This document shows positions 40,244 to 46,564 of a stretch of DNA of 49,350 nt, piece by piece. The notes beneath the pieces were generated by a model, which worked only from the letters and a program-made list of their open reading frames with translations, ran no database searches and was not told the origin of the DNA. Each line of letters opens with the position of its first letter. Position 1 is the stretch's first letter. Position numbers and translations under genes: made by a program. Origin of the DNA: a virus (taxonomy: Duplodnaviria; Heunggongvirae; Uroviricota; Caudoviricetes); IMG/VR virus record IMGVR_UViG_2671180676_000008; one strand, given 5' to 3'.

Positions 40244-40666
40244 TTAATGAACAATGACAGAATCGTCGGAAGAACCGCCGCCGCTGAAATGCGCTTTCCG
40301 GTAAACGGCTTGGACTGCATCATCATGCGCATCAATTGCCGTACTTAACGCTTCCTGCGCCGCCAGTAATGCACGGCGTTCCAGGGTATCGAAGATGCAG
40401 AGTCGGTGACGCAGCTCGCGCGGAAGGATTGCCAGAATTGCTGGGATCAGCTTCTGAATTTTTTCTCTTTGCGTTTTCGTTTCACCTTTCAACCAACGGT
40501 GATAGATATTCTGCTGATTGTTCCAGTCCTTGCCTGGAACCAGGGGCAATTCGCCGCCCCCCTGGCGCAGATATTCTTCAGTAATTGCATTGGCTACCCA
40601 TGCCTGCCCTTTTTCGGCTGCTAGGGCAAACAACACTGATTCGATGTGCTCATGCTTGATTTTCAT
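40244..40666 (-). CDS. ydaT: YdaT-family protein (CII-like regulator)
   Basis: 140-aa ORF downstream of ydaS in the Rac immunity-region order. Confidence 0.75.
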   Translation of the reverse strand: MKIKHEHIESVLFALAAEKGQAWVANAITEEYLRQGGGELPLVPGKDWNNQQNIYHRWLKGETKTQREKIQKLIPAILAILPRELRHRLCIFDTLERRALLAAQEALSTAIDAHDDAVQAVYRKAHFSGGGSSDDSVIVH

Positions 40667-40688
40667 GAATCATTTGCCTCTTGATGTT

Positions 40689-40985
40689 TCAGGTATGATC
40701 AAATGAGGATTTGTTACTGTCATTTAGTTGCTTCACTGACATATTCTGCGAACAACATGCCGAACGTCGTAAATATGACCAGTCAATATCAGGACGAAGT
40801 TCTTCGCACAGAACCTCACCTCTTGTTGCACGTTCAATTGCTGGACATCTCTCGGCAGGCAATTGACGTACCCCTTTGATCCATTGATTTACGCTTGGAG
40901 GTGATACACCTAAAAGCCTAGCCATTGCTGATTGCCCACCGACAACAGCACAAGCTTGCTTGAATGAATAGTTCTCTTTTTTCAT
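40689..40985 (-). CDS. ydaS: Cro-like HTH regulator YdaS
   Basis: 98-aa ORF with HTH (AMARLLGVSPPSVNQW), divergent from racR. Confidence 0.85.
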   Translation of the reverse strand: MKKENYSFKQACAVVGGQSAMARLLGVSPPSVNQWIKGVRQLPAERCPAIERATRGEVLCEELRPDIDWSYLRRSACCSQNMSVKQLNDSNKSSFDHT

Positions 40986-41013
40986 CGAATGAACTCCAAA
41001 AACACACAGAAAT

Positions 41014-41095
41014 ATTAGGCGACGCCTAACGCAATTGTCAATAGGCTGTGCCTAATGCAGTAAGGGTAGGGATTGCCTAATGTAATGCGCATAGG
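41014..41095. promoter_or_regulatory. Operator/promoter region between ydaS and racR with ATTAGGC-type repeats
   Basis: 15-bp perfect palindrome TTAGGCGaCGCCTAA (41015..41029) plus further ATTAGGC/GCCTAAT half-sites. Confidence 0.5.
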
Positions 41096-41108
41096 AGAAT
41101 ATTAAGCA

Positions 41109-41585
41109 ATGCTTAGTGGTAAAGACTTAGGCCGAGCGATAGAGCAGGCCATTAACAAAAAAATCGCATCGGGATCCGTCAAATCAAAGGCGGAGGTCGC
41201 ACGCCACTTTAAAGTCCAACCACCATCAATTTATGACTGGATTAAGAAAGGCTCTATAAGTAAAGATAAACTTCCAGAATTATGGCGTTTCTTTTCTGAT
41301 GTTGTTGGTCCAGAGCATTGGGGGCTTAACGAATACCCCATACCAACCCCCACCAATTCAGATACAAAAAGTGAACTTTTAGATATAAACAACCTTTATC
41401 AAGCAGCCTCTGATGAAATAAGAGCGATTGTAGCTTTCCTGTTATCTGGAAATGCTACAGAACCAGATTGGGTTGACCACGATGTTCGCGCCTACATAGC
41501 AGCGATGGAAATGAAAGTGGGTAAGTATCTGAAAGCTCTTGAATCTGAACGGAAAAGCCAGAACATCACAAAAACTGGAACTTAA
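41109..41585 (+). CDS. racR: Prophage repressor RacR
   Basis: 158-aa ORF recognised as RacR-like; divergent from the Cro-like ydaS. Confidence 0.9.
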   Translation: MLSGKDLGRAIEQAINKKIASGSVKSKAEVARHFKVQPPSIYDWIKKGSISKDKLPELWRFFSDVVGPEHWGLNEYPIPTPTNSDTKSELLDINNLYQAASDEIRAIVAFLLSGNATEPDWVDHDVRAYIAAMEMKVGKYLKALESERKSQNITKTGT

Positions 41586-41658
41586 ACTTATATGGTCTGA
41601 CGGAAAACTCCTGGATTCCGTTATTTAACCCCCCCATCACTTTCTGCTGTCGCCATCA

Positions 41659-41723
41659 CCTATTAGGTTACGCTCAAAACATTAGGCATAGCCTATTGAC
41701 AATCAATTAGGCATTACCTATAG
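41659..41723. promoter_or_regulatory. Second cluster of ATTAGGC-type operator repeats downstream of racR
   Basis: attaggcatagcctattgac is close to the reverse complement of gtcaataggctgtgcctaat on the other side of racR. Confidence 0.45.
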
Positions 41724-41893
41724 TTCCAGCATACCACCCACCCCGCCCCACAGAACGCCGGGCAATACTTCGAGTTACCAGGCAGTGGTAAGGGGTTAAG
41801 TAGCCAGCCCGAGGCGTATGAACATGACGGCGGGATTCAAATTTTGCAGTGCAGCAGTTAGTTCCGCCACCCGGCGTTAAGGGGAGAGATAAG

Positions 41894-42028
41894 ATGGTGC
41901 ATTACGAAGTAGTTCAGTATTTGATGGATTGTTGCGGTATCACTTACAACCAGGCTGTGCAGGCTTTACGCAGCAACGACTGGGATCTCTGGCAGGCAGA
42001 AGTCGCTATACGTAGCAACAAGATGTGA
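41894..42028 (+). CDS. ydaG: Small protein YdaG (44 aa)
   Basis: Hand translation MVHYEVVQYLMDCCGITYNQAVQALRSNDWDLWQAEVAIRSNKM; not in the ORF track. Confidence 0.6.
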   Translation: MVHYEVVQYLMDCCGITYNQAVQALRSNDWDLWQAEVAIRSNKM

Positions 42029-42038
42029 GATTCGCAAA

Positions 42039-42194
42039 ATGCAAAAAATCGACCTCGGCAACAACGAATCCCTGGTGTGCGGCGTGTTCCCCAACCAGGA
42101 TGGAACGTTCACTGCCATGACGTATACCAAAAGCAAAACATTTAAAACCGAAACTGGTGCGCGCCGATGGTTGGAGAAGCACACAGTAAGCTAA
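42039..42194 (+). CDS. ydaF: Small protein YdaF (51 aa)
   Basis: Hand translation MQKIDLGNNESLVCGVFPNQDGTF...; not in the ORF track. Confidence 0.6.
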   Translation: MQKIDLGNNESLVCGVFPNQDGTFTAMTYTKSKTFKTETGARRWLEKHTVS

Positions 42195-42679: not shown

Positions 42680-43120
42680 ATCAATAACTCTCAACTGTAA
42701 GGGTATTGAAATGTTAACACAAGCTCTCGCTGTAGGGGTATAGCCGAGACCACCGAAGCCCGGAGGTGGTGAAATAAAACCGGGCACAACACGAAGGCGC
42801 ATTTCCGATATCCATAAAGAGTCGGTCTTGTCTGTTAAATTTAAATGGTGGGAGTGCGCCTCCGGTTGTAAATAACGACATTGCTGTGTGTAGTCCTGGC
42901 GGCATCAGTTTTTTTCTTGAAGTTCGGCTGATGTCCGCCCTTTTTAAAGTGAATTTTGTGATGCGGTGAATGCGGCTAAGCGCACGTGGCACAGTTAAAA
43001 GTCATGTTAGTCCTTATTGGTTTGGGTGGGAAAGCCGACTGTAATTGTTAACTGGTTGCAGTCACCTGGAGGCACCAGACACCGCATCAACAAAGTTCAT
43101 TTGTAAAAATGGAGATAATT

Positions 43121-43963: not shown

Positions 43964-46564
43964 ATGAGCACAAAACCACTCTTCCTGTTACGGAAAGCGA
44001 AAAAATCATCCGGTGAACCTGACGTCGTCCTGTGGGCAAGCAACGATTTTGAATCGACCTGTGCCACTCTGGACTACCTGATCGTTAAGTCAGGTAAAAA
44101 ACTGAGCAGCTATTTTAAAGCTGTTGCCACGAATTATCCTGTCGTTAATGACCTGCCCGCTGAAGGTGAGATCGATTTTACCTGGAGTGAACGCTATCAA
44201 CTCAGCAAAGACTCCATGACATGGGAACTAAAACCGGGAGCAGCACCAGACAACGCTCACTATCAAGGCAATACCAACGTCAACGGCGAAGACATGACTG
44301 AGATTGAGGAGAATATGCTACTCCCAATTTCTGGCCAGGAACTGCCCATTCGTTGGCTTGCTCAACACGGCAGCGAAAAACCGGTAACGCACGTTTCACG
44401 CGACGGACTCCAGGCATTACACATTGCTCGGGCTGAAGAACTACCGGCTGTTACTGCCCTGGCTGTTTCCCACAAAACCAGCCTGCTCGACCCGCTGGAA
44501 ATTCGCGAACTCCACAAACTGGTTCGTGACACTGACAAAGTTTTCCCTAATCCTGGTAATTCAAACCTGGGACTGATAACTGCTTTTTTCGAAGCATACC
44601 TGAACGCTGACTACACCGATCGAGGACTGCTGACAAAAGAGTGGATGAAGGGTAATCGTGTTTCACACATCACTCGCACGGCTTCCGGTGCTAATGCTGG
44701 CGGCGGAAACCTCACCGATCGCGGCGAAGGTTTCGTACACGATCTGACGTCACTGGCGCGCGACGTAGCCACTGGCGTACTGGCCCGTTCAATGGATCTG
44801 GACATCTATAACCTTCATCCGGCACACGCTAAACGCATTGAGGAAATTATCGCTGAAAATAAACCGCCCTTTTCTGTTTTCCGCGACAAATTCATCACCA
44901 TGCCTGGCGGGCTGGATTATTCCCGCGCCATCGTGGTTGCGTCCGTAAAAGAAGCACCAATTGGGATCGAGGTCATCCCCGCGCACGTCACTGAATATCT
45001 GAACAAAGTACTGACTGAAACCGATCATGCCAACCCTGATCCGGAAATCGTGGATATTGCCTGCGGTCGCTCCTCTGCCCCGATGCCGCAGCGAGTAACA
45101 GAAGAAGGAAAACAGGATGATGAAGAAAAACCGCAACCATCTGGAACAACGGCAGTTGAACAGGGAGAGGCTGAAACAATGGAACCGGACGCAACTGAAC
45201 ATCATCAGGACACGCAGCCGCTGGATGCTCAGTCACAGGTAAATTCTGTTGATGCGAAATATCAGGAACTGCGGGCAGAACTCCATGAAGCCCGGAAAAA
45301 CATTCCATCAAAAAATCCTGTCGATGACGATAAATTGCTTGCTGCATCACGTGGTGAATTTGTTGACGGAATTAGCGACCCGAACGATCCGAAATGGGTA
45401 AAGGGGATCCAGACTCGCGATTGTGTGTACCAGAACCAGCCAGAAACGGAAAAAACCAGCCCAGATATGAATCAACCTGAGCCAGTAGTGCAACAGGAAC
45501 CGGAAATAGCCTGCAATGCCTGCGGCCAGACTGGCGGGGATAACTGCCCTGACTGTGGTGCGGTGATGGGCGACGCAACATACCAGGAAACATTCGATGA
45601 AGAGAGTCAGGTTGAAGCTAAGGAAAATGATCCGGAGGAAATGGAAGGCGCTGAACATCCGCACAATGAGAATGCTGGCAGCGATCCGCATCGCGATTGC
45701 AGTGATGAAACTGGCGAAGTCGCAGATCCCGTAATCGTAGAAGACATAGAGCCAGGTATTTATTACGGAATTTCGAATGAGAATTACCACGCGGGTCCCG
45801 GTATCAGTAAGTCTCAGCTCGATGACATTGCTGATACTCCGGCACTATATTTGTGGCGTAAAAATGCCCCCGTGGACACCACAAAGACAAAAACGCTCGA
45901 TTTAGGAACTGCTTTCCACTGCCGGGTACTTGAACCGGAAGAATTCAGTAACCGCTTTATCGTAGCACCTGAATTTAACCGCCGTACAAACGCCGGAAAA
46001 GAAGAAGAGAAAGCGTTTCTGATGGAATGCGCAAGCACAGGAAAAACGGTTATCACTGCGGAAGAAGGCCGGAAAATTGAACTCATGTATCAAAGCGTTA
46101 TGGCTTTGCCGCTGGGGCAATGGCTTGTTGAAAGCGCCGGACACGCTGAATCATCAATTTACTGGGAAGATCCTGAAACAGGAATTTTGTGTCGGTGCCG
46201 TCCGGACAAAATTATCCCTGAATTTCACTGGATCATGGACGTGAAAACTACGGCGGATATTCAACGATTCAAAACCGCTTATTACGACTACCGCTATCAC
46301 GTTCAGGATGCATTCTACAGTGACGGTTATGAAGCACAGTTTGGAGTGCAGCCAACTTTCGTTTTTCTGGTTGCCAGCACAACTATTGAATGCGGACGTT
46401 ATCCGGTTGAAATTTTCATGATGGGCGAAGAAGCAAAACTGGCAGGTCAACAGGAATATCACCGCAATCTGCGAACCCTGTCTGACTGCCTGAATACCGA
46501 TGAATGGCCAGCTATTAAGACATTATCACTGCCCCGCTGGGCTAAGGAATATGCAAATGACTAA
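43964..46564 (+). CDS. recE: Exodeoxyribonuclease VIII (RecE)
   Basis: 866-aa ORF, same length as RecE, with an acidic central region and C-terminal nuclease-type domain. Confidence 0.9.

Follow-up and report, generated by a model that had tools for sequence, protein, structure and literature searches.

Few transcription factors of Escherichia coli K-12 are essential; RacR is among them, and the switch in which it acts is actively studied. Current models of the Rac prophage place all RacR sites between the repressor gene, racR, and the divergent ydaS. Copies of the same ATTAGGC-type repeat also lie beyond the far end of racR, and the question raised by this locus is whether they form a second operator. 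The DNA analysed, referred to below as the window, is the whole of a 49,350-nucleotide virus record (IMG/VR record IMGVR_UViG_2671180676_000008) and is the E. coli K-12 Rac prophage; ∼1.5 kb around the repeats is 100% identical to K-12 derivatives, and the RefSeq annotation of the matching 1.5 kb lists ydaT, ydaS, racR, a phage protein (ydaG) and ydaF. The interval that includes the repeats very probably contains all the operators of the Rac immunity region, with RacR dimers predicted on 17-bp sites, four in a right operator (OR) and two in a left operator (OL) located on a leftward promoter.

A preliminary description of this DNA had noted a perfect 15-bp palindrome, ATTAGGC/GCCTAAT half-sites on either side of racR and a near-reverse-complement copy 3′ of the gene, and all of these are present. 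The palindrome, TTAGGCG-a-CGCCTAA, is at 41015-41029, has 7-nt arms around one central base, and lies within the 17-bp site ATTAGGCGACGCCTAAC (41014-41030). Exact ATTAGGC is found at 41014 (+), 41050 (-), 41075 (-), 41681 (+) and 41706 (+). The copy is a 35-nt inverted repeat, 83% complementary between 41034-41068 and 41669-41703, and the core of this repeat is one operator plus a -35 hexamer (CATTAGGCAyAGCCTATTGACAAT). While the motif repeats stand as described, the unit is better defined as a 17-bp operator made up of two half-sites, with four copies on the ydaS side of racR and two on the far side.

The number of exact ATTAGGC heptamers on both strands of the window (5, versus 6.3 expected from shuffles) is not above chance, but all five fall within the 285 bp of non-coding DNA flanking racR (P ~6e-12 under uniform placement). 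When every 17-mer of the window was scored by its mismatches to ATTAGGC-N3-GCCTAAT, only six sites had ≤3 mismatches and all of them flank racR, three having 1 mismatch (41014, 41040 and 41681) and three having 3 (41065, 41101 and 41706). First-order random sequence of the same composition yields 2.3 sites with ≤3 mismatches per 49 kb, and the probability that six 17-bp sites all land in the 285 bp flanking racR is ~4e-14 (uniform placement). At 4 mismatches the window has 17 sites, which is the background level. The clustering of the motif is real and far from chance.

The genes, promoter and sites of the right-hand side are as follows, with the strand given where one applies.

40689-40985, minus strand: ydaS, Cro-like regulator (open reading frame; Pfam YdaS_toxin 2.6e-31 and P22_Cro 3.4e-9; RefSeq)
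41012-41041, minus strand: PydaS, analogue of the rightward promoter PR; -35 TTGACA (41041..41036), 18-nt spacer, -10 TAATAT (41017..41012), 10/12 consensus in the promoter scan
41014-41030: OR site A (published O1), ATTAGGCGACGCCTAAC, 1 mismatch, between the PydaS -35 and -10; holds the 15-bp palindrome
41040-41056: OR site B, AATAGGCTGTGCCTAAT, 1 mismatch, 2-bp overlap with the PydaS -35
41065-41081: OR site C, GGTAGGGATTGCCTAAT, 3 mismatches, one good half-site, over the -35 region of the leaderless racR promoter
41101-41117: OR site D (published O3), ATTAAGCAATGCTTAGT, 3 mismatches, with the racR ATG in the central triplet
41109-41585, plus strand: racR, repressor of 158 aa (open reading frame; 100% identical to K-12 racR)

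The right-hand set (41014-41117) consists of experimentally established RacR operators that were already known. Three GCCTAA/TTAGGC repeats were noted in the 123-bp region between the divergent racR (+) and ydaS (-) genes, and RacR gave three complexes with this intergenic DNA in electrophoretic mobility shift assays as well as enrichment in chromatin immunoprecipitation with quantitative PCR (PMC5700373). A DNase I footprint of RacR led to an ATTAGGC logo and to the naming of inverted repeats O1-O3, with O1, which was protected first and at the lowest RacR concentration, placed on PydaS, and O3 placed over the racR initiation codon (PMC9638921). In the same study a single ydaS start site was mapped by primer extension, replacement of TAATAT abolished activity, and three racR promoters were mapped, the strongest of which is leaderless with a -10 of GAGAAT. 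Four inverted repeats were later described in the intergenic region (PMC11014345). The half-sites seen here match the published logo and the (T/A)TAGGC-N3-GCCTA(T/A) inverted repeats and are the same DNA, and the PydaS found in the promoter scan agrees with the published start site. From the window sequence, the GAGAAT -10 of the published PracR3 is placed at 41095-41100. The starts of the four OR sites are 26, 25 and 36 bp apart, and site B is kept in all RacR-type loci compared.

Beyond racR, the features are:

41662-41678: possible weak third left site, ATTAGGTTACGCTCAAA, 4 mismatches, one good half-site, starting 19 bp before the OL distal site
41681-41697: predicted OL distal site, ATTAGGCATAGCCTATT, 1 mismatch, 2-bp overlap with the leftward -35
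41696-41724, plus strand: leftward promoter like the phage lambda PL; TTGACA (41696-41701), 17-nt spacer, TATAGT (41719-41724), 11/12 consensus in the promoter scan
41706-41722: predicted OL proximal site, ATTAGGCATTACCTATA, 3 mismatches, over the spacer and most of the leftward -10

A promoter scan of 40600-42100 found two strong promoters, PydaS (-) and the PL-like promoter (+), which faces ydaG, ydaF, kilR, ydaE, racC, recE and recT. The OL distal and proximal sites start 25 bp apart with the -35 between them, and are arranged on the leftward promoter as sites B and A are on PydaS: in both modules the first operator extends two bases into the -35, and the following one lies over the spacer and -10. 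The geometry shared by the two promoters is GCCTATTGACA-N5/6-(A)TTAGGC-N3-xCCTAnnnT and, in the direction of transcription, the PydaS module reads ATTAGGCacaGCCTATTGACAattgcgTTAGGCgtcGCCTAATAT and the downstream module ATTAGGCataGCCTATTGACAatcaATTAGGCattACCTATAGT. The two modules are linked, as the 35-nt inverted repeat joins them. Centre to centre, 640-690 bp separate the OR and OL pairs. It is a well-supported prediction that the downstream pair acts as a second operator on a strong promoter directed leftward. The candidate third site at 41662-41678 improves to 3 mismatches in some relatives; in the window its 4 mismatches are matched at 16 other places, and it is kept as a possible site rather than a clear operator.

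Relatives of RacR were gathered from one genome per species and from viral contigs, giving 138 distinct immunity regions. The preliminary description had proposed a motif comparison with other Rac-like prophages, and the repeats are indeed kept in related immunity regions: two sites exactly 25 bp apart, with TTGAC between them, are found 3′ of the repressor gene in 130 of the 138 loci. This downstream pair begins 60 to 1459 bp beyond the repressor stop codon, and the loci that carry it range from Escherichia to Proteus and Achromobacter-type phages. The eight exceptions are one truncated contig, one locus with the distal site alone, one Klebsiella locus and five long-form loci.

Because most of the 138 loci are close E. 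coli relatives, conservation was remeasured on 16 diverged representatives, which include two E. coli types, Mixta-like, Morganella and Proteus loci, and nine of Achromobacter type. The half-sites hold 1.85 bits per position and the -35 hexamer 1.89, versus 0.68 for the central triplets (N3), 0.70 for the spacer from the -35 to the proximal site and 0.43-0.54 for the flanks. Position-specific conservation of this kind is what a dimer-binding operator joined to a promoter should show, and differs from what inherited similarity would give. The OL distal site is kept as ATTAGGC-N3-GCCTATTGAC in the 16 diverged lineages, and the proximal site in Mixta-type relatives is ATTAGGCATTACCTAAT, with 1 mismatch; in Morganella it is ATTAGGTATTGCCTAAT.

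On the protein side, residues 39-73 of RacR, around the helix-turn-helix, are almost invariant among homologues of 57-92% identity (PPSI.DWI.KGSISK.KLPELW..F.DVVGP.HWGL). The Achromobacter-type contigs encode repressors of 340-370 aa (L012:1501-2595 and L176:2501-3595) that combine a RacR-like N-terminal domain with Peptidase_S24, the domain of self-cleaving LexA/CI-type repressors. Their N-terminal portion is 73-77% identical to RacR over 77 residues, the Peptidase_S24 matches have E = 1e-13 and 1.5e-12, and the same ATTAGGC-N3-GCCTAAT operators are present at OR and OL. As these long relatives share both the DNA-binding domain and the OR/OL layout, the operator system is common to self-cleaving and short enterobacterial repressors. 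Across relatives, the operator sequence is kept together with the repressor DNA-binding domain. In several Achromobacter-type loci an intrinsic-terminator-like sequence, AGCGGGCTTTTTTT, lies directly 5′ of OL.

The downstream sites also move together with the repressor gene. Comparison by blastn with two heteroimmune Rac-like prophages (L002 and L003) defined one further feature:

40673-41729: exchangeable immunity cassette containing ydaS, OR, racR and OL with the PL-like promoter

In L002 and L003 the ydaT side and the left operon are those of the window, but the repressor and cro genes are unrelated. Homology ends at window position 40672, beside the ydaT start codon, and resumes at 41730/41732 with 99.7-99.8% identity onward; the right end of the cassette coincides with the predicted +1 of the leftward promoter (41730). 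Each of the two prophages carries its own repeat at both positions, AGTACAT/ATGTACT in L002 and TACCCATGGGTA-type palindromes in L003, with a motif spacing of 24-25 bp and an orientation that is inverted between the two sides. Both operator clusters and the repressor are thus exchanged as one block between heteroimmune relatives, and since the block swapped is exactly 40673-41729 with an own motif at both positions, the downstream sites belong to the specificity cassette. If the second operator is real, this would define the exact 1.06-kb cassette that Rac-like prophages exchange.

At the left junction, L003 shares with the window only 30 bp around the ydaT start codon (40643-40672). A YdaT-box has been placed at this start codon (PMC11879457), and its sequence, ATGATTCATGAAAATCAA, is in the shared 30 bp, so that the left cassette junction coincides with a regulatory site. 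A different combination is seen in E. coli ST648 (L001, 2751-4198), in which the left operon beside a RacR-type cassette (87% DNA identity) is Qin-like (DUF1391, dicB, ydfD) and takes the place of ydaG-ydaF-kilR, an example of mosaic exchange at the leftward transcript's leader.

Published expression data bear on whether the leftward promoter is under RacR control. When racR expression is lowered by a foreign regulator, ydaC, kilR and ralA rise >70-fold and ydaF, ydaG, ydaE and racC ∼40-fold (PMC6765115; PMC11014345). CRISPR interference (CRISPRi) against racR reduces racR RNA 11- to 20-fold and induces ydaG, kilR, recE, recT, xisR and intR (bioRxiv 10.64898/2026.09.06.749655). The left-operon genes are co-directional with racR, and read-through from the racR promoter cannot explain their induction, because CRISPRi lowers racR RNA while the left operon rises. 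This argues for a separate RacR-repressed promoter beyond the CRISPRi block, although the effect could be partly indirect. Together, overlap of the downstream sites with a promoter, conservation across genera, exchange with the repressor and derepression on RacR depletion support the two-operator, OR/OL-like layout suggested in the preliminary description.

As the literature has shown for the right-hand side, RacR on the four OR sites shuts off the Cro/CII-like genes expressed from the ydaS-ydaT promoter and, through the sites over the racR promoters, autoregulates racR. On the left, RacR dimers at 41681-41697 and 41706-41722 would keep RNA polymerase off the leftward promoter, thereby holding the early-left operon (ydaG, ydaF, kilR, ydaE, racC, recE and recT, on to xisR/intR) silent. 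Transcripts from the racR promoters head toward this promoter and reportedly end at a Rho-dependent terminator inside racR (PMC4150792). The OL repression step draws on the anatomy of the region, its conservation and the published transcriptomes. If correct, the second operator would explain directly why kilR, recET and xisR/intR are derepressed at falling RacR levels.

Several observations weigh against this reading. The 138 loci are not independent, being mostly close E. coli prophages, and no downstream pair was seen in the 0.8-1.6 kb available for the short-form Klebsiella locus L010 and the five long-form loci. In E. coli the right half of the OL proximal site is poor (ACCTATA), so that this site may have a low affinity. 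Part of the left-operon derepression after loss of RacR could be indirect, via YdaS/YdaT, prophage excision or lost Rho-dependent termination, and the terminator inside racR reportedly guards against kil expression (PMC4150792). RacR octamers have been read by the authors who described them as four dimers on the four intergenic repeats, with no OL in the account given (PMC11014345). In the available literature, no binding, footprint, start-site or reporter result was found for the sites beyond racR.

The terminator inside racR is also central to one other explanation, that the downstream copy is the relic of a duplicated promoter-operator module and that the left operon is controlled only by Rho termination of racR read-through. 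Rac is defective, and prevention of kil expression by this terminator is consistent with such control, but a relic would be expected to decay evenly, whereas the half-sites and -35 hold 1.85-1.89 bits versus 0.4-0.7 in the triplets, spacer and flanks, and the contrast spans Escherichia, Mixta, Morganella, Proteus and Achromobacter-type lineages. Heteroimmune prophages keep the two-position layout with different motifs, and CRISPRi of racR still induces the left operon (bioRxiv 10.64898/2026.09.06.749655); a relic is very unlikely. The downstream sites could instead be mainly targets of YdaS, or of YdaS and RacR equally, and lower early-left transcription after induction, not maintain lysogeny. 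YdaS is a P22 Cro-type helix-turn-helix protein by Pfam, and in the CP-933P prophage the repressor PaaR2 and YdaS both regulate the leftward promoter and have overlapping intergenic footprints (PMC8630535). However, the motif tracks the RacR DNA-binding domain, which is near-invariant wherever the motif is kept, and the footprinted RacR sites share the sequence of the downstream sites (PMC9638921). A mainly YdaS-directed function is unlikely, while an additional role of YdaS at these sites is possible and compatible with their being RacR operators.

A consensus scan flags 41030..41014 and 41695..41683 on the minus strand as terminator-like, and the 35-nt inverted repeat flanks racR, which would fit the palindromes being RNA or DNA hairpin terminators, or substrates for inversion of the racR segment, and not protein sites. 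The two calls are the operators themselves, with stems of 5-7 pairs that include 3 G-C pairs, and their number is at the shuffle expectation (2 found versus 1.4 expected). The first stem is inside PydaS and upstream of the mapped start, so it is not transcribed from PydaS, and the combination of a free central triplet with fixed half-sites is as protein contacts predict. For inversion, the ∼24 bp of near-identity is short for homologous recombination, and no inverted arrangement was seen among the loci compared. Explanations of this kind are highly improbable, and binding of RacR at OR and OL is preferred.

Purified RacR is octameric by size-exclusion chromatography (PMC11014345), and a second operator, if real, offers an alternative reading of the octamer. 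By analogy with lambda CI, octameric RacR would bridge the OR and OL pairs across ∼0.65 kb, and an OR-OL loop of this type is plausible. One specific form is proposed tentatively and could well be wrong: instead of lining up four dimers on the intergenic repeats, the octamer would contact the PydaS-proximal sites through one pair of dimers and the OL pair through the other, forming a ∼0.65-kb loop around racR that tightens repression of both early promoters and sets racR autoregulation, with the same domain and layout serving the self-cleaving Peptidase_S24 form in Achromobacter-type phages and the short form, which does not respond to SOS, in enterobacteria. If such a bridge exists, an operator-constitutive change in OL could switch on recET without releasing the lethal ydaST. 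Classical point-type sbcA strains activate recET and stay viable.

The overall arrangement resembles that of lambda. The repressor gene is divergent from a cro-like gene with several operators and back-to-back promoters between them, and a second cluster past the 3′ end of the repressor gene lies on an outward early promoter (41696-41724), so that in both systems the repressor gene is located between two operator clusters. Further similarities are 17-bp, partially symmetric operators overlapping divergent strong early promoters, a leaderless repressor promoter, an oligomeric repressor capable of forming octamers, and a terminator that parts the repressor transcript from PL, a role (that of t-imm) which the Rho terminator inside racR would play. 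There are also differences. Pfam detects no Peptidase_S24 domain in RacR, for which only a sub-threshold HTH_17 match was obtained, and RacR is reported not to be SOS-responsive (PMC10448788). Rac has four OR sites and two clear OL sites, whereas lambda has OR1-3 and OL1-3, and the distance from OR to OL is ∼0.65 kb in Rac versus ∼2.3 kb in lambda. Unlike lambda, YdaS is reported not to repress racR (PMC9638921), and the Rac operators have no sequence similarity to the lambda operators.

The closest precedent is CP-933P, a Rac-like prophage with the same gene order, in which the leftward promoter PL933P carries OL1-3 and is regulated by PaaR2 and YdaS in a reporter assay; PaaR2 is also an octamer (PMC8630535). 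CP-933P differs in having another repressor and motif (GTTTAGTAA-type 18-bp palindromes) and a toxin-antitoxin pair between the repressor gene and PL. An equivalent reporter experiment for Rac was not found in the available literature.

As far as their available text extends, the published Rac studies (PMC5700373; PMC9638921; PMC11014345) deal with the intergenic region and the racR start alone, and 41681-41722 is an addition to these. A downstream operator or leftward promoter was not found in the available text of those three papers, PMC11879457 or bioRxiv 10.64898/2026.09.06.749655. In PMC6765115, searched for the gene names only, the names are confined, in the text available, to expression and deletion passages. 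The Jobling letter (PMC5917428) makes no mention of a downstream operator, and the PPTP-seq supplements make no mention of racR, ydaG, ydaF or kilR. The literature search returned no description of a Rac OL or leftward promoter, though an older description may exist. The OR half therefore repeats published work, and the OL and leftward-promoter half is a well-supported prediction that was not found in the available Rac literature. Its novelty is modest, as OR and OL in Rac represent the ordinary, expected lambdoid design and no new principle.

The remaining features of the region are:

40244-40666, minus strand: ydaT (open reading frame list, RefSeq)
41730-41893, plus strand: leader of the leftward transcript, 164 nt from the predicted +1 to the ydaG ATG, common to heteroimmune prophages and outside the operator
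41894-42028, plus strand: ydaG (open reading frame list, RefSeq)
42039-42194, plus strand: ydaF (open reading frame list, RefSeq)
43964-46564, plus strand: recE (open reading frame list)

The leader is 80-99% identical in ∼3,800 E. coli genomes, in prophages of three immunities and in 12 E. coli phage records, and a core of ∼75 nt is nearly invariant (GGGCAAUAC...GACGGC). In lambda and HK022 the same position, directly after PL, is occupied by nutL and putL, respectively. The Rac leader could not be assigned to elements of this type: there is no Rfam match for 41730-41893 at E ≤1, the phage records matching the leader do not include HK022, and alifold on 17 leader sequences found no compensatory pairs, the core being too conserved for this test. 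The single-sequence fold has z = -1.9, and its long-range helix is broken in L001. The first ∼30 nt (41730-41760, +) contain a great deal of C and little G (CAUACCACCCACCCCGCCCCACAGAACGCC), as Rho-utilisation sites do, and may connect with the published Rho silencing of Rac kil.

An 8-bp hairpin followed by UUUAA is located at 41598-41623 (+), 13 nt past the racR stop, and a variant with an extra G-C pair is present in L001. As its fold is no better than that of shuffled controls (z = -1.0), it was not called a terminator. Further downstream, a DicF-like RNA sequence at 42885-42940 (+) precedes kilR just as dicF precedes dicB in the Qin prophage. Its score of 39.1 bits (E = 2.5e-6) is below the Rfam gathering value of 48, and it was not called as a DicF small RNA; its terminal hairpin is kept, with a diverged 5′ targeting part. 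Finally, a 5,219-bp contig (L006, JARKOR010000130.1) binned as 'Candidatus Nanosynbacter' contains a racR region whose product is 100% identical to the RacR of K-12 Rac, which is most likely binning contamination of a metagenome-assembled genome.

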